A stretch of DNA of 60,314 bases, the filler included, from Sphacelaria rigidula (Eukaryota): NCBI GenBank assembly GCA_964200075.2. It is 6 parts of 6 records of this genome, joined end to end, with 100 filler letters (N's around TTAATTAATTAA, not from the genome) between each part and the next. Parts side by side here need not be neighbours in the genome. Positions count along the whole stretch, not along the records: positions 1 to 9,970 come from CAXNAA020007391.1; 5 more parts are not named here. The stretch is one strand, 5' to 3'. A program made the translations under genes and the position numbers. Position 1 is the first letter of the stretch; every line of letters starts with the position of its first letter. The notes below the pieces were generated by a model, which saw only the letters and a list, made by a program, of their open reading frames with translations, did no database searches and had not been told where the DNA came from. This document shows positions 1-55,652 of this stretch, piece after piece.

Positions 1-4
1 GGGG

Positions 5-37
<33 letters not shown>

Positions 38-41
38 GGGG

Positions 42-292
42 GTACTCATGATCATGCATGTCATAGTCATATGACTATTGACCTCGCATCCCTGCAAAGC
101 CGGAACGGACCACGCCGGGTTTTCGCCGCACCAGGTTCACACTCAATCACCAAGCGCGAAGCGCCGTGGTGTGTTCGGCGAGTCGCATGAAGGGTCAGCT
201 GCATCCTGCCAAGACTATTCGACCCGATGCGTTTCAATTATTTTGCACATGGACGGACGGTAGCCTCGAAGCAGCTGCTGGAAGGGAAGGAA
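42..292 (-). repeat. Poly-G/C-flanked dispersed repeat ending in ATGAGTAC
   Basis: Homologous to 10171-10520 and 29870-30109 (core cggcgcttcgcgcttggtgattga..gaaaacccg). Bounded by G runs on both sides. Confidence 0.8.
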
Positions 293-391
293 GGGGGGGG
301 GGGGGGGGGGGGAACGGTGGGGTGAAAGGGGGAGGAGAGGCAAGGAGTTAATAAGAATTTTTACGGGGGTAAACCACCCGANNNNNNNNNN

Positions 392-448
<57 letters not shown>

Positions 449-1242
449 AAACGTACGATGAAAGCAGGAGATATAAGCAGTCATTATCCATATTTCTATC
501 GCGCGTTAACCAGCCTGACCGGGCCAGCACATTACCCGACGCGATCCTCCCAAAAATGACAAAGCATCGTCGTGCGTCAACAAAGCGAGCAACATTTGCC
601 ATACCTGAAACCGTTTCGCCAATACCATTCAGACGGATATATCGCAGTATGAAATCACAGGAAAGTCGATGTTGAGATGCAAAAAATCACCAACAACGCA
701 AATTCAAGCTGTGAACACCCCCCCTGTATAACCGGACAGGCTTGTAGATTTACGCTGGCAAAATTTTCACTGCACTGGACGTACATATTAATTATGTCAT
801 ACTCCGTGGTTGGACGATAGATGGCGACTTTCAAATGCATCAAAATCGCTACGCACTCCTGAGAAAAAAACCCGTCAAGAACATCTTCAACCCTGGATTA
901 CTGCAGATATCAACACCCCCAAATGCCACCATTAGATCGATCTAGATATAGCGGGGTGCCTGTAAAATGTGGGTGGGAACAAGCGACTGTACCTGACGCT
1001 GTCTACAGTGCTTAATCCCTCCCCCCGGCCTGTCTGTGACTAAACGTAATCACTTTTCACTTCCGTTATTACATGACCACGGCTCCGGGAGATCGGGCTA
1101 ATGTGCGGAAAAATATAGACACAAACAATAACAATAACAATAGTATGATGATGGCGATGATAATAGTATGATGATGGCGATACTGCTGATCATAGTGATA
1201 AGCATAAAATAAAGTAATAATAATGATAGTCAAATAATGATC

Positions 1243-1309
<67 letters not shown>

Positions 1310-1349
1310 GAACAATACGGGTGATAATGATAATAATAACGATAATAAT

Positions 1350-1386
<37 letters not shown>

Positions 1387-1440
1387 ATAATGCTGATGAT
1401 AATACTAAATTGATAATGATGACAATGATAATAACAATCA
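1243..1440. repeat. (TAA)n/(CAA)n microsatellite
   Basis: Directly visible trinucleotide runs. Confidence 0.95.
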
Positions 1441-1472
1441 ACATGTTTTCAACAAAAGCAAAATTCACCCAC

Positions 1473-1598
1473 CTCCCCAGGCTGCAGCAAACCCGTCTCG
1501 TCGACGACGCCAATGAGACACACAGCATCAGGCACGAATATCCTGGTTTTGTTCCGAAGGTCGACCATAGCCTTCCCTCGCGAGGCCCGCAGGACGTT
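1473..1598 (-). CDS. RDR: RDR internal exon C
   Basis: cag acceptor and gtgggt donor, 126 nt. Translates NVLRASRGKAMVDLRNKTRIFVPDAVCLIGVVDETGLLQPGE, matching the RDR 'LrxKtRIfvp...lmGvlDEtg.L..GeV' motif. The gene continues beyond both piece ends. Confidence 0.9.
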
Positions 1599-2014
1599 CT
1601 GAGGGGAAGCAAACAGTGCATTATCCGACAAAACATGCCGCTTGTTGCATGTGTCATGTGTCAGGGTGCATGAATTTTGCGCTATCGTCTCGTACGGTGA
1701 TGTCTGTTATATACTGACCCAGCAGAGCGTGACCTCCCTGTTGGAACCAATATCTTCTCTGACCCGTGTGTCGGAACCGCTTTACGCAGGGGTCCCAGGT
1801 ACACTAAAATCAAGTAAGATGTACAGAAAGTTCGCACCCGAGACAAGATAATACACTGGGAAAAAAGCGTACGGCGTACAGTGTCGAATATATGTTCTGT
1901 GTTACAATACATAATAGACTCGACACTGTACGCAGTACGCTTGTTGCCAGAGTAATCTATTCCAAGGGTAGTGAACATAATGATTCATCTGAAAATTTTG
2001 TCGCCTTTTGTGTA

Positions 2015-2235
2015 AGTGATTCGTACTGTACGAATTGATTCTTGGTTTTGCTTTTCAGCGTTGCATCCCACCAGGTACGCGCACCCCGAGACGCGTGGAA
2101 TAGCGCGAACTTTGCGTAGAGAAAATTTCGACCGGTGGTTGACGTTTTCATCTCTTCCGAGCAATCAGGCCTCAGGAATCGTAGGTTTGTTGATTCGGAA
2201 CAGACTTCAGTGATGATTCCTACCGATCATTGAAT
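2015..2235 (+). repeat. Dispersed repeat, second copy at ~45858-46050
   Basis: Shared gattcgtac(t/c)gtacgaat...ttcagcgttg...ccaggtacgcgca...aatcaggcct...aatcgt. Confidence 0.75.
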
Positions 2236-3126
2236 CCATTGTCAAAGTTGTGAAAAATATGTCATCATGTAACATAATGTGTAGCGGTAAAGGTTTCTTT
2301 CCGGGCGCCCTCTCCACCCAAGAACAGCATATATATCCGAAGCCCTAAATGTGGACCATCATCAGCTGGCGCCTGACTAGAGAGCACAACGGTCAGAGGG
2401 CTGACGAACATACTCTTTCGCGCTGCGCGCCCCGCGTCAAAACGATTCGCGCTCGAGGAGTCAGACCTCAGATGAGATTACAATTGGTACTCCACTTCAC
2501 GCATCTTTACCAGCAATACTCTTCAATGGACAACTGGTCATGTTGTATTACTGCTGCACGGATATTGGAGGTTCCATGATCACGTGTGTCACCGGAGGAG
2601 GAGGTGTCTCAGACACAGGCAAAGCATCAAAAACTGCGCACCAGATGACAAAGACACATCATTCTCCCGTAACCCCGGAGAGCGCGGCAAGTTCGGGGTA
2701 CCTACCGAAGTCTGTTTTTGCAGTCTCAACATGGCAACTGAAAAGTGTTGTGATGACCGGCCGAGGACAATAGACACTCTGAAGGTAGGGCTGACTAACC
2801 TGTGGAACATACTAGATCACCACCACACTTCGACTGCTAGACGGATGTGACCTACGGATCATCAAGCAGTATGCAAGAAAAACGCCGCCCAAGGCTACGG
2901 ACACGAACATAACACAGAAGATAGTAGATCACCACATAAAGATAAAAAAATGATGATGACCGGTCAAAAGACAAGATGTACTCTTAAGGTAGCGCTCGTA
3001 ATCTAGCACTACACGACTCCGGTCTTGACCGTTTTTACGGTACGCCTATATATCAATTTCAATACCTCTGCACATATACCTATACGTATATGTATGAATG
3101 TATGTATATATATTGTATTTTAGTAC

Positions 3127-3282
3127 CTGCAGATAGGGGGTTGTTGTCACGTCAAACCCTGCCTTCACCATGGCCAACGCCTCCCACAGGGGACCATACT
3201 GCTTCTTCCCCTTGGATCTTGCGGAGGCGCTGTTGTAGTACCGCACCAGCGCTTCCTCAGCCGCTCGTTGATCTCGCACCAT
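3127..3282 (-). CDS. RDR: RDR internal exon B
   Basis: cag acceptor and gtac donor, 156 nt, phase 0/0. Translates MVRDQRAAEEALVRYY...LAMVKAGFDVTTTPYLQ, matching the RDR 'ml.aGF....ePfl' segment and joining exons A and C in frame. Confidence 0.85.
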
Positions 3283-3489
3283 CTGTACAATGTGGAGGAG
3301 GGTGTACACGTTGGTTAGGGGAGGTGGTAGCCGGGAAGGGGCAGGAGAAGTATCAATGCCACCGCAATCAATTATACGTACCCCAGAGATGAAATTCGAC
3401 CAGCTTACGCCACATGACACTTCGTGACAACACACGCCAAATGAGATACCTGTACATGTGAGTGATACCTTGCTGGTCTCAATCTAGTG

Positions 3490-3983
3490 TTACACATTAG
3501 ACCCAGTGGAGATAGATGCAGATATTCCACCGTAGTCATTGAGGGCACTGCAGAGCTGTGTGGGCACACATATGTATAGGTCGTTTGTTACATACTCTAT
3601 TAATTTCTTCATGGCAGTCGAAACCACAGGATACTTCACTACCCAGCTCAGGCTTTCATCACCCATGGTTAGAAGGCAACCAAGTTACGCTCCATGAAGG
3701 TACATTGTACACCTAGGACTCTCCTCATATCTACAGATATCAACTGATCCACCAACTGACACATATCCACCATGAGCATGTCACTGATGGGAAATGTCCT
3801 AGCCTGCAACTCACTATGATGGGATGCAGATACTGCTGTCCAGATTAGCATGGTTGATTGTGTGAGTACATACTTCCATGCTGTCTTCGTCATAGAGTCA
3901 GTCTGGGTGGGTGTCATGCCTATTGAGAGTGCCACATCTACACCTTTCTCCTTCCCCACATACATGGATAACCGGGATGCCAC
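3490..3983 (-). pseudogene. Possible RNA polymerase beta'/RPB1-like remnant
   Basis: MRRVLGVQCTFMERNLV resembles R.nllGKRvdfsaRsVi. After a 1-nt frameshift come WVVKYPVVS (like vllnRqPtLh) and ICVPTQLCSALNDYGG (like I.l...vC..yNADFDGD). The catalytic motif is not intact and spacing is short. Confidence 0.3.
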
Positions 3984-4193
3984 CTCCTACCTATCCGGGT
4001 ATCCATGTTTTCAGACATCTTCGTGAGTAAGCCTATAGTAGTGTGCAGTGAACGTACTGAGTCTAAAAGTGTCCTGGGTACACCATGTCCATTTCCAGCT
4101 GTGTCATGTTGGTCATCAACATATTAGGTCCTTAACCAACACAGTCCATACCGGGGTAACGACTAACCTCATCTTCACCAGGATACCAGCATG

Positions 4194-5265
4194 CGTCCTA
4201 ATCCTAGTATATTTATGTTTGTCGTGGGTCATGTGGCAGGACTGCGTCAACCTGATCACACCGTAATCACACATCAGGTGTTCCATCAAGTGTAGCTCCG
4301 ATGGTAGATCGCGATTGATCACATGAATAGGGTACCTCCGGATGGTCTCTAGGTCTACGTCCGTATCTATCTGCGGTACACTAAGACCTAGCTCTATGAT
4401 CGACAGGCATGCCCACGCCTCCATTACTTGACCTGGAGTGCCCCTCTTAAGTCACAGCTGTGCTACCCATCACGAGTTCAAATGGCACCCTAGTGTCACC
4501 TTCCATCATATACGGCATCTGTGCGTCCTCTAGTACTGTGACCACACCCTTCTCACCCATGAGAGCACATAACTTATCACCTGCGGTAGCTGTGCATGCT
4601 CTCGACACGGCCAATCTCACTCTGTCGTATCCCAGGCGTACTGTTTGCTCCGCATATCCTGGCACTGGTATGCCCCACCATGAAATACCATTAGCAGGTA
4701 CGCTCGTACCCACTTCCCACCCCTTAGCCTTCTCCGTGGATAGTATTACAACCGCCTCTACCCTGTATGTGAACCTAGTCGCACAACCACGAGACATGAT
4801 GAACCCATCCTCGAAGGTCCCACCCAGTCGGCAGAAGACCACACGAACATTGAATCCCGGATATCCTTCGCAGTTCAGGTCACCACCATACAGTCTCTCG
4901 CCAGTACTAGACGCCAGTATCGACGATTCATGGTATTGGGGGTAGATGGTGGTCGACACTCTGTTGCATGGTCGGCTGACAGACTGGTTGAGGAAGTGTG
5001 AGCTTAGTCCCCTCCTAGCAGTGGGTAGGTATGGCAACACTAGCCTGGGGATGAAAGTAGTCGGTCTCTGTTGATCTGATGACACTGGGTAGGGTAGTTG
5101 TGTCAAGTTGTACAGTTGAACCCTGTCCCGCCTGGGCATTGTACTATTTACCCACCCCAAACCCTCTATATACGAAGTATCTCATCAAGCGCCCTGCATT
5201 GACAGACACCACTACCTCGTCATCCCCATGAACGTCCAGTGTAGGAGCGTTGTAGTCGTGTGACG
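4194..5265 (-). pseudogene. Divergent multisubunit RNA polymerase beta/RPB2-like subunit, central part (frameshifts at ~5161 and ~4449)
   Basis: RPB2 motifs in the expected order: EVVVSVNAGRLMR; LVLPYLPTARRGLSSHFLNQ; GFNVRVVFCRLGGTFEDGFIMS; GDKLCALMGEKGVV..MPY; ELVMGSTAVT/KRGTPGQVME; YGVIRLTQSCHMTHDKH. Confidence 0.88.
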
Positions 5266-6270
5266 GTTACCTATTTAGATCCACGAGTCCCTCCCTGATA
5301 CATGGGTACACCCAAAACTCCACTCCCACAATCACTAGCCTTGCAGATGCTGCTATCCCATCCACTCAGAAGCCTTGGGTAGAATGAATTCTGTGCATGA
5401 GTTTTCGAAAGGGACACCCATCTAAGATACTGGTGGATATGGTGAGTAGGAATCGTCACACTAGGTTTAGGACAGCCATAAAGTCCAGTTGTGCAGCAGT
5501 GAACACGGGTATTATGGTGGCGTCATATGACCCAGTACTGCCAATCATTATACTCCATACTACAGTGTCGACCATGGCACAGTCAGGTCACTGCCACATA
5601 GCATCTTTACGACACTATGGCTGAGGATATACACTGTTGTAAGAGATTACCCTGCATCCAGCGCGTCCATGATAAGTAGGTGCTATAGAGACTATCGCAT
5701 GATCACAACGTGTCATGTCAACGTGAAGTCTCCAAGTCTAGCAAAGGATGATGAGCGTGCTGTTGAGGAGAGGAGGAGACTTCTAGACCTTACCGATAGT
5801 AGCATCATGTAGGAGAGGTTCGTGGGTATTATAGCAGCGAAGGATCCATACAAGGCTGTGTCAGGGCAGAGAGATATATCCATCGATTCAACACACAATA
5901 GCAGATCAGTACAATCGCTACAATGCAACGCGTGGCAAGTGATCTATGTCTACTAAGTAAATGGGCAACCATGAGGACATACCCAATTAGGAACGGGGAC
6001 GCTAGATACCCATGCCTAACATGTGGTGTACCCCGTCTATCCCAAGCTACACATCTGTGTCAGCTGGTAATAGGGGAACATAGGCTGCATATATCCGGTG
6101 AACACCTGTTACGTCCAGAGAGGTATATATGTCAGGTGTTATCAACAAGTGCTCTCACACTGGACATGATAAGGAGGGTAGGGGATCTATATTGCAACAT
6201 AGAGTTGGATCGCACTAGTCCGGGTAGGATGATGGGTGCTGTTAAATAAAAGGAGGGTGGTGCTAAGGCT

Positions 6271-6852
6271 ATGAAGTTAGGGGTAAAATACACATGCCCC
6301 GTGATACAGATTGCATCCATGGTACTGCGAGGTAACTTCACTGCTGTGCCGTGCCCTGGGCCGTCTGTAGCCAACTCCACAGTGAGACAATCAGACATGG
6401 CTAGGGGTATACTGACGGTGGGCGGCAAGTGGAGGGATGTGACCAATACTAACACTTATGCACGCACGCAGGTTGAAGCTGGGAGTAAGATCATGGGTAG
6501 GGATGCAGAGACTGCTGTTCCACTCAATATGCCAGATGAAGTTGTGAGGTCTTCCACAATAGTGAGTATTACGGGTATGACGAAGGTATGTGCCACAATG
6601 GGGTGTCACAGAGTGTATGGTATGACAGTACAATCCCTAGCTGTCTTTTCCAGGATACTATTAACCCCATACAACAGAGATATATTGGCCCTAGTGCTAA
6701 CTGAGAGAATCAAGGTGACCGTGGAGCACGTTAGTGGTTGTTCTATTGTATTCACATACATGGGTACAGTCTCCTACACTGGTAATCCCTCGAAAATACC
6801 CATAGCCATATCTGAGTTCATGCAGGTTGTAAATATGGTGTTCATGAACAGT
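6271..6852 (+). pseudogene. Divergent TATA-binding protein (TBP)-like ORF, now fused in frame to the RPB2 tail
   Basis: ~194 aa with two TBP-repeat-like halves: PVIQIASMVLRGNF and MTVQSLAVFSRI (NiVa-like strands), plus SIVFTYMGTVSYTG..KIPIAISEFMQVV (resembles lIFsSGkvv.TG plus helix). Recognised by eye only. Confidence 0.5.
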
Positions 6853-7149
6853 GGTTCTGAGGGGTCACTCAACGTGTCGGGAGGTCGAGTTACAGGTGGT
6901 GGGGCATCGTTGGGTGAGATGGAGATGCAACAGCTGACTGGAAATGAGCTCGCCATGTGCTCATATGAGTTGCAACTGTGGGGGAATACTCTATCCACCA
7001 CATGGTGTTCCCATTGCCCCAGAGGTTTAGCGGCATGCACATGTGGGGATCAGAGTACAACAGGATCGATCAGACCGAGTAAGGGGCTACTAGATAGCAT
7101 AGTGACTATGATACATGCATCTGGACTGGACGTCGAGCTATTCAAATAA
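6853..7149 (+). pseudogene. RPB2-like C-terminal segment, on the opposite strand from the rest of the gene
   Basis: GRVTGGGASLGEMEMQQL matches RPB2 GRxxxGGxRxGEME. It is followed by a Cys cluster (WCSHC..ACTC) like the RPB2 zinc ribbon and a terminal helix ending SGLDVELFK*. Confidence 0.85.
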
Positions 7150-7678
7150 CACCTGACGCTACAGACAGCCCGGTCGTGGTCCCTATACCTTTGGTCACTG
7201 TGTAGATGGGTTCCTCATGGTCTATGGTAGTAAACCCTCTAGTTGTCACGACCCCTACAACTCAAACTTGAGTGAGTACTCTGATGCTACACCCACCACT
7301 ATCACTATTCGTCCAACCGTCGCCGCCCGATCCTATCACCCATGGTAGTTTGTCCATGAGTTCGGTTAGACTCCTCCTAGTAGTTAGGTCCAGAAGTAGC
7401 GTAGGCCACACACCCTGGAGAACCTTCCGTCATCGCACTTCAAAACGCTGTGACACGTCTAACCACCGGTAGGCAGTTGTACACACAGGCCCATGTCCAA
7501 CATAGAGCATGATGGTCTAGTGAGGGGATCTGGATCGTGGTGGTCTAAGTCCCTCAGCACTAGCACGCACATACCATTCATCAGCCTCTGAGCCACAGCC
7601 AACTGTGAGGACTGTTCGTCAGTATATCCTACATGCATGTAGTGCCTTGGAGTGATCGACGACGGTCTCGGGAAATAA

Positions 7679-8118
7679 ACAGCCGATCATCAAAATTGAG
7701 GATGGAGCTTTTCATTGAGGATGAAAACCCGGATGATTCAAATCTTCGTATCCACATCAAATCTTCGAAATATAGTTTCATTTCTTCACCTGCTGGTAGC
7801 TATTGACAACTGCTACACACTCGACCAATTTGGATCTCGATAACCGAAATATTGGAGTCGTAGGTGAAAAACAATTTTGGGGGAATTTAGATGATCCGAT
7901 CGGATCGCCGAAATTGCCTGAATTTGTTTTTACCCAGGGCATTAACGTTTCGGTCATTGAATTCCAAATTTGTATGTCGTGTAGTACTTGTCAATGGCTA
8001 CCAGTAGGTGAAGGAATATGACCATATTTCGAAGATTCGGTGTGGAGACCAAGGTTTCAATCCTCCGGGTTCTCATGCTCGATGGAAAGCTCCATCCTCA
8101 ATTTCGATGATCGGCTGT
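7679..8118. mobile_element. Fold-back MITE (long imperfect palindrome)
   Basis: Starts acagccgatcatcaaaattgaggatggagcttt and ends aaagctccatcctcaatttcgatgatcggctgt. Same family as 35890-36333. Confidence 0.85.
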
Positions 8119-9450
8119 GAATAGCCTGTCCTGTGATACTCCCTGCCTTACAGTGCGTGGTTCCCCATTAACAGGAAGTCCAGATACATCTACGAAGCTA
8201 CTCCGAGCAGGTAGTTACTTGTCATTTTCTCAATTCTACCGTGAAGCCAAGACCTGCTGCCCGCGGCGGCAGCAGCATGTCCCAAGCCGAGGAGTAGAAG
8301 CATCTCGTCAGGAAAACGGACTCCACAGATATGCGCGTATAGCGCTATCCTTGCACCGTCAACGAGGAGCTCCGCTTCAACGATAGAAAAGGCTTAACCG
8401 CTTGCTTATGCTCCCGGCTGGTCCCCCTCACCAACCGGATGGCGGCCTTGTAGTTGATCATGTTACCTCCAGTCTCCCTTCAAGCAAGCCTAGATCAGAC
8501 CCAACAATCTGCTCGACTCTACAGGTTCTTTCTGTGCGGTCGCCGTGAAAGCGTTATTTTTCGGATCTTCCTTCATTCCCTACCTGCTGCCCCCCTTCCC
8601 CTCTCCAGCGCATTACCGCAGAACATGGAATCCTTGGGCGTTCAACAAGAATTTAACAAAACGATTCACTCACCGTCTTGAGATTAACAGCAGAACTATT
8701 GTCAGGTTGTACAGTACAATGCCCGTGCGAGAATCTCCAACCGTTTTTTTTTGCCGGTGATGTGGCTCAATCCTATCAATCCGGCGAGTTTGGTCGGCGT
8801 TGCTATCCCAAGCTGTTTCTTTTTCGCTATTTCGCTCTAGAAAAAAATGAGACGAACTCTTATGGCCCCCGTTGAAAACAAAATCGCGCCCGATATCGAA
8901 CGATTTAAGGAACGTCGTTTTTGTCCAGGCTCGGGGATAGTATTGTGATGCATGAAAACAAGTCATTCAGGTAAATATTTTAAGTCGAGCGCAGACGCGA
9001 TGAAGACATTACCCAGCAGGAAGCACCACCACGCACATGTGTATGTAAGGCATAACAATAATTACATTCGGCTACCATTTAAAACCACACAAACGTGATC
9101 ACCAGGTACTGTCTTTCCGTGTTTTCTGAGAATCTAGCTCGCCTAGTATATAGCTACCGATGCTTACTCCTGCCTAGACATACCGGTTGCTATAATCCTG
9201 GCCTTTACGCAATACGCACATCTAGCAACCTACCAGCAGCTACATCTGCTTACAATCAAGTAACTAGCAGATCAGTGTACAATCGTCCTCGCGCAGCACA
9301 TCATGTTGAGCCAGTATACGCAGAAATTGACAGTAGCAGTCGATAGACGTGGTCGCCAGAGAATCCGCACAATCCAATAATCTATCTCTTCTCTACCAGT
9401 ACACTTTAGAGTAACTACACCAATGCAGTTATTGTTCACCCATCCATCAC

Positions 9451-9579
9451 CTCATTGAGACCATCCACCATCTCCGTGTAGAGAACTTCGATGCGTTTAT
9501 CCGGCACCCCCAGTGTGGTGAGGAGGGTGATGAGCTGTCGGTTCAGGTAGAACGGTAATCGCCGAGCGTATTGGATCAC
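9451..9579 (-). CDS. RDR: RNAi-type RNA-dependent RNA polymerase (RDR/QDE-1-like), internal exon A
   Basis: Polypyrimidine tract and cag acceptor. Translates VIQYARRLPFYLNRQLITLLTTLGVPDKRIEVLYTEMVDGLNE (RDR motif YLNRQxIxLLxxLGVPD). Donor gtgatg, 129 nt, phase 0/0. Confidence 0.9.
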
Positions 9580-9857
9580 CTGCACGTCGAGCGGAAGAGA
9601 GGGAGCGAGGGAGAGAGGGAGAGACTCTGCGCCCAACACAAAAAAAATAGAAACTGGAGCCAGCTACCCCACCGGTGGGAACCTTAACCCTTGGACCGCG
9701 AGGAGAGTAGTCCATCTGGATCATGCATCTTTTGTTTTCGAGTAAAATTTGATGCCGAGTCAACAGATGACCAACTCTCACCGTTAAAGGGATACCTTTC
9801 GTGCTTTCTACACTACTATACCTTTCAGGGGAGCGCTCCCCCCCCTCCCCCCCCCCC

Positions 9858-9970
9858 TCGTAGTGGCATGCTCCGTCTCGAAAGGGATGCGTGGTCAATG
9901 GTCAAATAACTAAGGCAAGCAACAAATGAGTACGCCCCCCCCTCGTAGTGGCATGCATGATCATGAGTAC
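9858..9970 (+). repeat. Nested short ATGAGTAC-ending repeats
   Basis: A 62-bp unit tccgtctcgaaagggatgcg...aacaaatgagtac lies between two copies of ccccccctcgtagtggcatgc. The same unit occurs at 41921-41982 and, reversed, at ~50420-50480. Confidence 0.8.
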
Positions 9971-10070
9971 NNNNNNNNNNNNNNNNNNNNNNNNNNNNNN
10001 NNNNNNNNNNNNNNTTAATTAATTAANNNNNNNNNNNNNNNNNNNNNNNNNNNNNNNNNNNNNNNNNNNN
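9971..10070. other. Artificial contig linker (also 20041-20140, 30110-30209, 40179-40278, 50248-50347)
   Basis: N44-TTAATTAATTAA-N44, with stops in all six frames. Pieces are 9970, 9970, 9969, 9969, 9969 and 9967 bp, i.e. length-sorted. Confidence 0.98.
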
Positions 10071-10170: not shown

Positions 10171-10520
10171 CTCATCCGCGCTCGCGCAAGGCGATGATTT
10201 CACTATGTAGTGTTCAAATGGTGAGACATCCATGAGCTAATGTAGCCTGCGGTTGTCTGTGGAAGTGGCCATACCAGAAAAAATGAATCAACTCATTCGA
10301 GGCTGTCATCCATAGGTAAGATAATCGGTACGGTTCAGGTCGAACAATCGTAGCAGGATGCAGCCCACTCCTCATGCGACCCGCCGAACACATGACGGCG
10401 CTTCGCGCTTGGTGATTGACTGCGAGCCTGGTCAGGCGAAAACCCGGCGTGCTCCGCCCCGGCTTTGTAGGGATGCGAGGTCAACGGCCTTATGACGACG
10501 GTACGCAAGATGATGAGTAC
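10171..10520 (+). repeat. Poly-C-flanked dispersed repeat ending in ATGAGTAC
   Basis: Preceded by a C run and ends gatgatgagtac-acccccc. Homologous to 42-292 and 29870-30109. Confidence 0.8.
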
Positions 10521-10747
10521 ACCCCCCCGTGCGCGCTTCTCGAGTCCGTCTTCTCGAGGGATGAACGCAGCTCTTCCCTGGTACCTGCCTTGAAACTGCC
10601 TCATGGAGCGTCGGTTCAGCACAGGCCCAGCCAGCCTGTCGACTTTCATCGATTATTCTTGAATCTGTTTCCCGTTTCTCATCGCCTTTGTTCCTGTTTA
10701 TTTTATCCCGTTCGTTTATTTTTATCTTGGCACATGTCTCTGATCAG

Positions 10748-42617: not shown

Positions 42618-42638
42618 ACCGACGATTCGCAGCTATCG

Positions 42639-45400
42639 ATGCCAAGTGCTGGAGGGCAGCCCTGGCGTCAGGTGACTCTTGGGACAGAACCGGGCTCTTC
42701 GGCAGGCGTGGTACCTGTCGATCGCAAGGCTGAATGCTTACGCGCAGATTTAGCCTTGCCTAGTTCTGTAGGTTCCTTCATGGCCCGCGTTATTCTGGAT
42801 TCTGGGTCCGCGCTCACGTCGATCGGTGTGGGGCTGTTAGAGCAATTGTCCTCGCAGTTTGGCGGCGCTCAGCTTCAGATTCCATTCGAAAACGGACCGC
42901 AAACGGCACAGACCGCCACGGGTGCTCCCGTGACGGGTACACACAAGACGGTGCCAATTACTGTTAGCGTGCGTTCGCCGTGTGGGGCTGTGCAGTTGCA
43001 GCCCATTACTTTCGCTGTCATGCCCGGTAGGGGCAACGTGGTTCTATTTGGGATGGCGACAATGAAGGAGCTTGGGATTGATTTATATCCGCTGGCGTTG
43101 GAGAAGTCACGTCCGCGTGCTGTGCCGGTGCAAACCGGCGTGGAAAACCCCAGTTACTTTGCTGCAAGGCGTGTGATCGTATCCGTACGGTCATTCCAGA
43201 GCGCCAATGAGGAGGAGGTTCCTGTTGATGAAGCGGTAGAGCGCTTGGTTGAATCGGGGGCCGGAGAGATTCACGGACCCAGCAGAGGAGAGAGGTTCAC
43301 GAAAATGTGCGCTTGAGGATAGTGTACGGCAGGCCGAGCAGAAGGGCCTTAGGGCCGATGGCGCACATTGTCTGCGCGATAAGTTGGCTCGCCGCGTAGA
43401 TATTATTCGTCGCGCGCTGCGTGGTGATCCGCCAGCGCGCGTGGAGCCGATTAAGGAGGCTGTGAAGGCCAAGCCTCGCCGCTGCGATCCGGTGAAGACC
43501 GTGTGATTTGCTTCATGCATCGCAGTTTTGGTGGCATTTGGTTTTTTGCTAGGGATATTCCGGCTGTGTGGACGAGTCCGGCGATAGCGGTGCCGAAGAG
43601 GGACACATTCCGTTTGGTCAGCGACCATCAGGCGGTGAACGCGCAAGTGGAACAGTCTTCGGGGGTGATGCCGAGCCAAGAAGACATGCGGGACTTGCTC
43701 GGAGCCCAAGAACAATATTGGTATGTCAGTAAACACATTCCTGGAGAGCGCATTTTCTGGGGAGATTTGTTGTCTCGCTTGGTGAAGGTTTCTACCGTGC
43801 CTATTAGTTATGTTGCCGTGTACAGCCCGTGTGATGCCGATGATTCACTGCCCTCGTTAGATGTCATTCGTACCGCGCAGCGCAAAACAATCGGCGACGG
43901 TGTTCATTCTTTTTCTACGACTTTCGGCCAAGCTACTATGACTAACGATGGTTTGCTTCGTGTGCGTGTTGGCAGTCGTGATGTTGTGTGGATTCCGTCG
44001 GATGATGAGGCTCTACAAACTCGCTTGATGGTGTGCGTTCACATGCGGTCGGCTGGTCACCGTAGCGTGGCGCCGACTCTGTTTCGTTTGAAAGTATACT
44101 GTGCGTGGCCTCACATAGATTCCCACGTTCGCGAGTTCGTTCGACAGTGTTTGCATTGTGTAGACATTCGTGTTGGTGAGATTGTACCTCGCCCGTATGG
44201 CGATACTGTACATGGTACTGCGCCAGGTGAAGTTGTTCACTTCGATTCTCTCTCCGTCGGAAGTAGCGGACCTGAAGGTGCTAATGGTCTGCCTGAGGAT
44301 GATGGCTTTCAGTGTATTTTGGCCATCATGGTTGACTTGTCCAATTTCGTTTGCTTGGAGCGGACCGAGGCTTGCACCGCCGAGGGTACGGCTAAGCACT
44401 TACTCAATTGGTGCAAGACTTTGGGGGTGCCGCGTGTTTGGGTTGGCGATACCGCCACGCACTTCAAGAATCGAGTGATCGCGCAGCTGAGCGATGCACT
44501 CAAGGTGCAACACCAATTTGCTGTTGCGTATACCCCTTGGTCGAATGGTGCTTATGAACGCATGGTGAAAGAGGTGATTCGTGCGTTGCGGTCTAATCTT
44601 TCGGAACAGCGACGGCCGGTGTCTGAATGAGTTGATGTTTTGCCAGCCGCTCAGTGGGCGTTAAATACTTCTTTTCGTGAACGCTACCGTAACAATCCGT
44701 ATTGTGTGATGTTTGGGCGTGCGCAGCGTATAGCGTTTTCCGCGCTGGTTTCTGTCACTGGCGGCGAGTGGAACGTCGATGTCATGGATGCTGATTCGTA
44801 GCGTGACAAGGTTCGAGGCGTGGTTGTTGAGCAAGTACGGTTTTGTAACGGAGTGCGAGCTGCTGTCGCGGTGTCTCGCGAAACCAAACGCAAGCTTGCG
44901 CAGGGCCAGGTTGTGTTGCCCAAGTTTGCAGTTGGCGATTTCGTCTTGTATGCCCGTGTTCGGAGGCAAGGTGTGACGCCAAAGTTGATGTCCACGGGAC
45001 AGGTCCGTGGCGAGAGGTCGGAGCCGATAACGCTCACACGTGTATTCGGTGCAGAACATTGTTTCTGGCGCCGTGCACTCCGCCCATGTCGCTCGTTTAC
45101 GTTTCTATGCTGACTCGCAGTTGCACATCACTGCGGAACTAAAAGATGTATTCCAGCATTCGTATGCTCAAGGTGAATGTCGGATGAATGCTTTGGTGCA
45201 CGTCGCTGAGGATGATAATGGTGATATCATTGTTTTGGTCGATTGGGAAGGGTTCAGTGCTGAAGAACGTACGTGGGAGTGGAGTTTCTTCGCAAGATTC
45301 ATTCTTCTGCGCCTGAATTTGTTCTGAAGGAACTGCGTAAAATGCGGTTGACTCGGGCGCTGACCAATAAATTTGCGTCGGGGTATGGTATTTCTTTGTG
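42639..45400 (+). pseudogene. pol: pol: protease, truncated RT, integrase, chromodomain
   Basis: VILDSGSALT (protease); WTSPAIAVPK..FRLVSDHQAVN (RT start); HIPGERIFWGDLLSR (RNase H end); H..GH..CLHC and VHFD/GDTATHF/NGAYER (integrase); VLVDWEGFSAEERTWE (chromodomain). Confidence 0.92.
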
Positions 45401-53990: not shown

Positions 53991-55652
53991 TGAATGCAAC
54001 GGCGAGGCGGGTTTACGCCAGATCATCGTCAAATCATCATGGCGGACGCATTCAGGAAACAAACCTGAACCCTAACCCTCACTCCAATCTAAGGCGAAAC
54101 AAGGACCCCAAGGGAAAGGGGTACGCAAATGAGGTCGAGGGCAAAGTGTGCGTTGCCACGAGCTCGAAACAGCGTCGGTTCGAGCAACAATCGGTATGCT
54201 GCCTGCGTACGACAGGAGGAGGCACTCGGGGACCGTCCGCTCTCTGAAGACCCTACGCTCACGTTTCCAACGCTAAAAATCACGTATTTTCAACCGTAGT
54301 GACTTGATGACCTAGTCGCGTAAACCCCACTGATAGCTTACAGCTCTCTCGGTGTGATGTAGCCCCGCCACTGGCGGTAGCGTGGTTTTCCTTGGATCGT
54401 ATATTTGTATGAACGTTTCCGGTGGTTGCATGAACAAAGCGCTTGACAGAGTCACTCAGATTTCAGCCAATCAGCGACTAAATGCGGTAGTGAAATTAAC
54501 CCATTGCAAGCCGGAGGTGGTCCAACTGTAGAATAGGCATCATTTTTATTCCTTCGAGTGAAAAGTGATGATTACACAGACGAGTCGCCTCTGGTGGTCA
54601 TAGGATTGAACATTACTTTACCATAGACTATGAGCCCCCAAACACATCCGCACTGTACCGCTTTACAGTGTCTCGGCTACGCCCCACTGTCATCTACGCG
54701 CAACGTCCTGTTGTTCAACAAAGGTCGGGGCGGTTGAGCACCGGCACAGCCCGTCGGGTTAGTGTGACGTCGAGGTACGCAAAACACATGTTCTCGATTT
54801 GTGCTGTAGCTTGACGGGTTTATTTGTGCTTCACTCTGAAACGAAGTGAAAACATCATTTCATATGACATCATGATTTCAGTATGATTCTCATGTCACCC
54901 TGGAGCAAACATCATCCTAAACTTCCGCGGGAATATATATACATATATATATATATATATCAATGAGCGATAGTATTCCGAAATGCAGCCACACGCCATA
55001 GGACCTACGTGGCACCTTGTGTACTGTACAGGGCTCCTCAGCGTATGTTGTACCGTTCTACCTGACCATGATGGTCATTTTCCCAAAAATGGGAACCAGC
55101 CGGACTCGAGTCATTACGACAGGAAATCGGGAAAGTAGGCGGACGAGCTGACGCGAGTCATACTGTATACTGTGAGTTTCGGGGTGGTGGCTTGAATACG
55201 GCGACTTCGGACAAACGGGGGACAAGTGGACTCGGTAATGCGACCAATTCGAAAAAAGAGGAACCAGCGGAATCGAATGAGATCGGACGCGCCCAGAAAA
55301 AAGGGTAAGAACATACTCGAAGTTCAAGTCGGAAAAATGGGGGACAAGCTGACGAGAGTCACACGACCAATTTCAGGAAAATGAGGGACGACCTTACCAA
55401 AGCAATCACGACAAATTCAACAAATTTCCCGAACTTGAACAAGGAGAAGCCCCACTTCCGCGACTCTAGTGCAAAAGCCGGCACGGACTCTCGTTCGATG
55501 CGTGTCGCAAATCACAAAAAGCGAAGCACACAACAATAATAAAGCACATCAGGATACAACCACAGACCCGCTTTGAACCATAAGCCCACACCTTACATGC
55601 CAAGACGACAAGCCACGAACAGATCCACCAAAAATACACACTTCTTCCTTAC

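Follow-up and report, generated by a model that had tools for sequence, protein, structure and literature searches.

Positions 4116 to 7149 of a stretch of DNA from the genome assembly of Sphacelaria rigidula (GCA_964200075.2) are read here as a decayed virus-like fragment in an algal chromosome, in which two divergent genes were broken by one inversion of ~2.66 kb; we put the probability of this reading at about 0.88. One of the genes encodes an RPB2-like RNA polymerase subunit, and the other is called gene X here. The stretch as a whole, hereafter the window, is 60,314 nt long and consists of 6 parts joined by fillers of 100 N; neighbours in the window need not be neighbours in the genome, and positions 1 to 9,970 correspond to record CAXNAA020007391.1. 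The inverted part, with the 5' portions of both genes, lies at 4194-6852. An earlier note on this DNA had proposed that a single inversion of that segment explains two chimeric open reading frames (ORFs), and the proposal is borne out by two sets of homologues. The nearest relative of the RPB2-like protein (P0058, 688 aa) and a family hidden Markov model (HMM) tile across the right junction (J2), and a homologue of gene X (P0062, 538 aa) tiles across the left junction (J1). The inversion coordinates proposed earlier were correct to within 9 nt. The features of the locus are listed in Table 1.

A search of 1.8 billion representative proteins returned 56 relatives of the RPB2-like protein at an E value of ≤0.001, 30 of them at ≤1e-10, and all relatives checked were short, divergent RPB2-like proteins. 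The family HMM, which has 756 positions, was built from 27 relatives and run on the six-frame translation of the whole window; P0058 belongs to the 90% cluster of P0003. On the minus strand, the HMM match of piece A (4450-5181) spans HMM positions 334 to 560 with 205 bits, and the piece also matches the Pfam family RNA_pol_Rpb2_6 (PF00562) with an E value of 3.7e-5 and 23.5 bits against a cut-off of 23.4. The same domain is present in all seven relatives tested (E values of 1e-8 to 5e-21). Piece B corresponds to P0058 residues 505 to 590, with 42% identity over the aligned stretch. The minus-strand match had been placed as stopping at ~4194, and the HMM agrees, with residue 86 of piece B, its last, falling at base 4194. 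Likewise, the continuation was expected on the plus strand from ~6853, and both the HMM and P0058 tile from 6853 onward. When piece C (6853-7146) was searched alone, it matched HMM positions 661 to 752 with 50.0 bits, and the join on the HMM runs from position 656 to 657/661. P0058 residues 600 to 688 match 6883-7146 with 51% identity and share the C-terminus. P0058 is divided between residues 590 and 591; ten window residues from 6853 face nine of P0058, and thus the two halves meet with a surplus of one residue in the window. The motif spacing on which the earlier note relied is 18 residues in the window and 17 in P0003, P0008, P0010, P0019, and P0058.

The sequence upstream of 6853 in the same frame is of a different origin. 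Residues 1 to 194 of the chimeric ORF that includes piece C score -1.8 bits on the RPB2-like HMM, and an RPB2-like origin was rejected for them on this score; BLAST and HMM matches reaching a few residues upstream of 6853 were judged to be local-alignment overhang. The 299-aa frame that holds piece C had no Pfam match at an E value of ≤0.1. The relatives themselves match Rpb2 domain 7 (PF04560) with E values of 1.6e-7 to 2e-3, and only P0014 reaches the 32.1-bit cut-off. The gene is continuous across the break point in P0058, in solved polymerases, and in six intact RPB2-like ORFs of 797 to 852 aa on metagenomic contigs (L009, L010, L011, L012, L015, and L020).

The other half of the argument rests on gene X. 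A first search with the whole 292-aa chimeric ORF retrieved only the ORF itself, with the screen limited to proteins of similar length, and P0062 was found by searching longer proteins with ORF residues 1 to 194. P0062 residues 34 to 516 cover 5421-6861 on the plus strand, with residues 219 to 516 corresponding to 5971-6861. This match goes three residues beyond 6852, which leaves 9 nt of uncertainty in the position of each breakpoint (4185-4194 on the left, 6852-6861 on the right). The C-terminal end of P0062 is found across the left junction on the other strand, where residues 518 to 538 match 4184-4122 (12 of 21 residues identical; E value of 0.015 over the whole window) and the match finishes one codon ahead of a stop. 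The earlier note had argued that flipping the segment gives the plus-strand ORF its own in-frame end. The end itself stands, since P0062 residues 518 to 538 match it, but an in-frame run as such carries no weight, because 39% of random frames in the window run at least 25 codons before a stop; the evidence comes from the homologue. Gene X encodes a protein of ~540 aa of unknown function, and the 292-aa ORF, rather than being an independent small gene, carries its C-terminal ~40%.

We additionally examined both genes as read-through translations, in which the translated pieces were joined with X at every break; the test was thus made on joined translations and not on a segment flipped with its real letters. 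The RPB2-like read-through gave one HMM domain (positions 278 to 752; 364.9 bits) and one BLASTP stretch against P0058 (residues 206 to 688; 40% identity), which runs straight across the junction. The gene X read-through likewise aligned in one stretch with P0062 residues 34 to 538 (52.5% identity), again straight across the junction. With the inversion undone on paper, the RPB2-like gene and gene X lie back to back and are divergently transcribed. In three of the six contigs with an intact RPB2-like ORF (L009, L010, and L012), the upstream neighbour is also divergent and encodes 516 to 601 aa. This neighbour is homologous to P0062 by hhalign (E value of 1.3e-4; probability of 53%); the score was 40.6, whereas none of 30 shuffled controls exceeded 24.8 and the reversed control scored 19.5. 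The divergent pair on these small-genome contigs suggests, with moderate strength, that the restored order is the ancestral one.

The inverted arrangement exists in the DNA of the organism. Logan contigs of four sequencing runs from two studies (X1, X3, X4, and X5) were aligned over 3000-8200; the runs that contain the region include the label 'algae metagenome', and no RNA run was listed among them. In X1, which may be the source sample of the assembly, a contig of 3939 nt covers 3766-7704 with both junctions and no differences. In X4, which is independent and comes from another study, a contig of 3939 nt over the same positions also includes both junctions and differs by 10 substitutions and no gaps. 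Both junctions are bridged by separate contigs in X3 and the right junction is bridged in X5, such that J1 is bridged in three of the four runs (X1, X3, and X4) and J2 in all four. Among the 15 joints listed of 73 (3 of the 15 being opposite-strand joints), none is near either junction. Depth at the locus was 83.9, compared to 82.8 on the left flank. None of the four runs showed inserted or deleted letters compared with the window, indicating that the frameshifts described below are real and not assembly errors.

The 292-aa ORF had been considered a probable product of rearrangement, and this holds, with two unrelated homologues each tiling across one junction. Residues 1 to 194 are 59% identical to P0062, and the apparent start of the ORF is an internal methionine of gene X downstream of a premature stop. 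The same ORF was called on an independent Logan contig, with 290 of 292 residues identical. Two findings had been named that would speak for a different origin. One was the same fusion in intact relatives, and there the RPB2-like genes are continuous and P0062 ends with its own tail. The other was an origin of the pieces from different paralogues; within the window there is no second copy of any piece, and tblastn of the pieces retrieved only themselves. A duplication of gene X, suggested by direct repeats at 3821-3839/6500-6518 and 3955-3970/6751-6766, was rejected, as the repeats come without similarity at the protein level.

In contrast, the label 'TBP-like' given earlier to the N-terminal part of the ORF found no support in any sequence test. 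ORF residues 1 to 194 matched no Pfam family at an E value of ≤10, and all nine matches in a PDB sequence search were to ribosomal protein eL21 (E values of 0.26 to 0.95), with no TBP among them. P0062 had no TBP match in Pfam at an E value of ≤1, a four-sequence profile of gene X (A3) found nothing relevant and no TBP in PDB, the ESM Atlas gave no usable match for gene X, and no gene X relatives were found in IMG/VR. AlphaFold models of the gene X protein were poor, with mean predicted local distance difference test (pLDDT) values of 35 and 38, the latter for P0062. Foldseek with the P0062 model returned nothing at an E value of ≤0.001; the human TBP core (1cdw_A) stood at rank 23 with an E value of 0.85 over 92 columns and a probability of 0.69, the highest in the list, from a model with a pLDDT of 38. 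This non-significant fold match on a poor model is the sole trace of TBP, and the resemblance may serve as a lead only. The sizes also differ, with the gene X family at ~540 aa and TBP at ~180 aa, and the window ORF carries only the C-terminal ~40% of gene X. Neither 'TBP-RPB2 protein' nor 'split polymerase' is a suitable annotation for the 292-aa ORF. The example illustrates that independent homologues of the two halves allow a chimeric ORF to be resolved cleanly.

Both genes are decayed. The earlier claim that the inversion restores a continuous RPB2 is correct as to continuity across the junction but not for the gene as a whole, which has two frameshifts and an in-frame stop (Table 1) and lacks ~205 N-terminal residues. 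There is no counterpart of P0058 residues 1 to 205, and 14 N-terminal queries found nothing upstream of 5362 at an E value of <0.1. Nothing matching the RPB2 protrusion, lobe, or fork domains lies upstream of 5362, where gene X occupies the other strand. Gene X in turn has no counterpart of the first ~33 residues of P0062. The gap between the two gene bodies is only 58 nt (5362 to 5421), and therefore a deletion removed both 5' ends. Compared to X4, all six substitutions in the mapped coding segments of the window change the residue; this sample is small and only fails to show constraint. The RPB2-like copy in the window is a pseudogene, and the locus is best read as non-functional and drifting.

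Table 1. Features of the locus, with positions along the window.
Feature	Position	Strand	Remarks
Detached 3' tail of gene X	4116-4193	-	25 codons and stop 4116-4118; reads on from RPB2-like piece B
Left inversion junction J1	4185-4194	.	Piece B ends at 4194; P0062 tail match starts at 4184
RPB2-like piece B, region between Rpb2 domains 6 and 7	4194-4451	-	HMM positions 561-656, 53.9 bits
Frameshift between pieces A and B	4452	-	Piece A in frame -3, piece B in frame -1
RPB2-like piece A with catalytic Rpb2 domain 6	4453-5172	-	P0058 residues 269-504, 38% identity
RPB2-like HMM match	5147-5266	-	HMM positions 305-334
Frameshift, RPB2-like	5173-5176	-	Upstream piece in third frame
Most upstream recognisable RPB2-like piece	5177-5362	-	P0058 residues 206-268 and onward, E 5e-6; third frame
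In-frame stop, RPB2-like	5267-5269	-	Within piece 5177-5362
Gene X body	5421-6852	+	P0062 residues 34-516, 51-68% identity per segment
Gene X frame segments	5421-5549, 5552-5869, 5853-5927, 5971-6852	+	P0062 mapping
In-frame stops, gene X	5810-5812, 6247-6249	+	Plus three frame changes
Chimeric 292-aa ORF	6271-7149	+	Residues 1-194 gene X, residues 195-292 RPB2-like tail
Right inversion junction J2	6852-6861	.	P0062 match extends to 6861; piece C tiles from 6853
RPB2-like tail, piece C, domain 7-like with Cys cluster	6853-7149	+	Stop 7147-7149

Under the inversion reading, the ancestral fragment would have carried two back-to-back divergent genes, one for a reduced RPB2-like RNA polymerase subunit and the other gene X. 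One inversion would have severed each gene close to its 3' end, and each body now faces the tail of the other gene. Two double-strand breaks that were rejoined without homology are the likeliest route, because no pair among the 25 longest of 49 inverted repeats borders the segment. At J2, gene X and the RPB2 tail came to share one frame, giving the 292-aa ORF. Both genes also lack their 5' ends, between 5362 and 5421, and contain frameshifts and stops. Several observations weigh against this reading or parts of it. The tail match at J1 is short (21 residues; E value of 0.015) and comes from a single homologue. Each junction is one residue off its homologue (+1 for the RPB2-like gene and -1 for gene X), and the offsets may reflect unclean rejoining or indels in the lineages. 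The homology of gene X to the upstream neighbour is modest (probabilities of 46 to 53%), and polB takes its place upstream in L011, L015, and L020. No other viral gene was found in the window, so that 'viral' rests on these two genes alone. As to decay, six residue-changing substitutions out of six have an estimated chance of ~0.18 under neutrality, given that ~3/4 of random changes alter the residue, and an open frame of at least 194 codons is rare by chance here (P = 0.004), such that some recent constraint on the chimeric ORF is possible.

That the inversion is a mis-join of this assembly is very unlikely. The N runs in the window were taken as a sign of imperfect assembly, and X1 may be the sample from which the window was assembled, but X4 carries its 10 substitutions on one contig across both junctions, X3 and X5 bridge as well, and the near-identical 292-aa ORF was found independently. 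Nor is there an opposite-strand joint at 4194/6852 among those listed, and depth equals that of the flank. The one-orientation result also bears on a programmed DNA switch with two orientations, which we consider extremely improbable: beyond the inversion itself there is nothing in its favour, and only one orientation was seen in all four runs. Among the 25 longest of 49 inverted-repeat pairs, none borders the segment; the bases shared by the borders amount only to a 4-nt reverse-complement match, as expected by chance; and the sole recombinase-like gene, among 10 ORFs scanned, is a retroelement integrase 36 kb off along the window.

A functional split polymerase, with the C-terminal module of RPB2 attached to a DNA-binding (TBP-like) partner and the 292-aa protein as the expressed product, has several points in its favour. 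Of the 4552 stop-to-stop frames in the window, only one is longer than the 299-codon frame, an open frame of this kind is improbable by chance as given above, the ORF is kept in a second strain, and there is the weak match to the TBP-core fold. However, the fusion occurs in no relative, the polymerase gene is otherwise interrupted by frameshifts and a stop and has lost its N-terminal third, the start of the ORF follows the gene X stop at 6247-6249, and both differences between the ORF and that of the other strain change the residue; we hold this alternative to be highly unlikely. An origin more complex than a simple inversion is improbable. Viral fragments or paralogues could have been joined in opposite orientation at integration, or a complex rearrangement could have occurred, with the tiling being partly coincidental. 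Integrated viral DNA is often fragmented, the loss of both 5' ends between 5362 and 5421 amounts to at least one further rearrangement, and the one-residue offset at each junction fits this view. Against it, the two junctions tile on proteins unrelated to each other, to within one residue and with neither overlap nor gap, and a single two-break event accounts for both. The window holds no second copy of any piece, and the restored order agrees with the divergent gene pair seen in L009, L010, and L012.

The setting of the locus also favours the main reading. The content of the window is eukaryotic-looking, with N runs, long simple repeats, and retroelement protease and integrase genes at 42.6 to 44.6 kb, and repeats in the window reach a k-mer depth of about ten thousand times that of unique sequence. 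As in the endogenous viral elements (EVEs) that large DNA viruses have left in algal genomes, for instance those of giant viruses in brown and green algae, the virus-type genes have single-copy depth, are embedded in a host chromosome rich in repeats, and show stops, frameshifts, deletion, and rearrangement. Here the depth was equal to that of the flank (83.9 and 82.8), the contigs run into flanking repeats, and retroelement genes are in the same window. In contrast to those EVEs, the locus comprises only ~3 kb and two genes, and its RPB2-like gene is far from the canonical RPB2 of giant viruses. The words 'RNA polymerase' are absent from the accessible part of a paper on EVEs of brown algae (PMC11890097). 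In the portion available of an Undaria preprint (10.1101/2025.02.06.636530), RNA polymerase matches are treated as host genes and none is given in the large insert.

The gene encodes a divergent, virus-type RPB2-like protein and not the RPB2 of the host RNA polymerase II (Pol II). A host Pol II RPB2, which would have ~1200 aa and all Rpb2 domains, was rejected, since the closest proteins are metagenomic or EVE-type proteins of 688 to 918 aa and Pol II chains rank far below those of vaccinia virus and archaea. The best matches to solved structures were vaccinia virus rpo132 for P0014 (E value of 1e-11) and archaeal Rpo2 for P0058 (E value of 6.5e-12), each a single stretch spanning the break point. 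Like Rpb2, Rpo2, and vaccinia virus rpo132, the protein has Rpb2 domain 6 and ends in what appears to be a domain 7-like module with a cluster of Cys residues, but the intact relatives are 797 to 852 aa long, compared to 1117 to 1224 aa for the best-matching solved chains. Pfam Rpb2 domains 1, 2, 4, and 5 were not found in the relatives, and domain 3 was weak (Rpb2_3 in P0058; E value of 0.012). The RNA polymerase of baculoviruses has an RPB2-like subunit of ~800 to 900 aa (LEF-8) and an RPB1-like subunit of ~500 to 600 aa (LEF-9). The architecture is similar, going by these general sizes, but no Pfam LEF-8 match was found in seven relatives (E value of ≤0.1) or in P0058 (E value of ≤1), and the relatives' contigs are far below the general size of a baculovirus genome.

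These contigs are where intact relatives of the RPB2-like gene are found. Relatives with a genomic context sit on dense metagenomic contigs of 8.5 to 24.5 kb, which in L009, L010, L011, L012, L015, and L020 carry polB (family B), the RPB1-like gene, the RPB2-like gene, a helicase gene, and genes of unknown function; the gene order is conserved. The RPB1-like proteins are 576 to 606 aa long and have Rpb1 domain 2, and the helicase has the C-terminal region of a P4-family primase (P4/D5 type). Contig L010 has 15,488 nt with a direct terminal overlap of 123 nt, as would be expected of a complete genome of ~15.4 kb that is circular or terminally redundant. Mriyaviruses, known relatives of giant viruses, are similar in having small DNA genomes with a helicase-primase-type protein; however, according to the part of PMC11253617 that is accessible, they are without a DNA polymerase and without RNA polymerase subunits, whereas the relatives' contigs carry both polymerases.

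The closest relatives are proteins from Logan, ENA, and JGI, and no named source virus was found: a phage collection gave no match, a search with P0011 returned two unnamed proteins, and IMG/VR, with P0003 as the query, returned eight canonical giant-virus RPB2 loci with 25 to 30% identity over the C-terminal part only. A literature search, limited to passages of the papers, found no published description of small elements with polB and a reduced RNA polymerase. At NCBI, P0005, an unnamed partial protein from the kelp Laminaria digitata, is 37% identical to piece A, so that brown-alga assemblies also contain this RPB2-like family. We tentatively suggest, at somewhat less than even odds, that the fragment is what remains of a so far undescribed group of very small DNA viruses or plasmid-like elements (~15 to 25 kb) with their own polB, P4/D5 helicase, RPB1-like protein of ~580 aa, RPB2-like protein of ~800 aa, and gene X, in which case the window and the L. 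digitata protein would be the first link to a host, namely, algae. If the elements are real viruses, the locus offers a lead to the organisms they infect. In a dead insert, the inversion itself is nothing out of the ordinary, and the modest interest of the locus lies in its little-known source lineage, as it ties an algal genome to a reduced RPB2-like family whose intact members sit on tiny metagenomic genomes.

A further pair of RPB2-like ORFs, P0020 (515 aa, N-terminal) and P0019 (261 aa, C-terminal), was reported from a Logan contig of 5057 nt and may represent another interrupted copy of the family in another organism; P0020 residues 312 to 374 also match the RPB2-like piece at 5177-5362. 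Other genes of the small genomes were not found in the window, where two weak tblastn matches of L017 and L011 ORFs at 54105-54528 (E values of 0.002 to 0.005) are probably due to chance.

Several repeats lie near the locus. At 7679-8118, an inverted-repeat element has arms of 198 nt (79% complementary) and a spacer of 44 nt; in each of the four runs its k-mer depth exceeded that of the unique sequence beside it about ten-thousandfold, and many variant joints occurred. It looks like a very high-copy repeat of the miniature inverted-repeat transposable element type. Two copies of a dispersed repeat of 220 nt (34-253 and 10309-10528), inverted and 80% complementary, bracket the region and are unrelated to the inversion junctions. 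An N run at ~9971-10070 adjoins the right-hand copy, and unknown bases, seen as X in translation, occur within 215-602, to the right of the left copy. Finally, retroelement pol fragments are found at 42618-44630; one ORF resembles an aspartyl protease, and another, of 391 aa, has the zinc-binding and core domains of an integrase.

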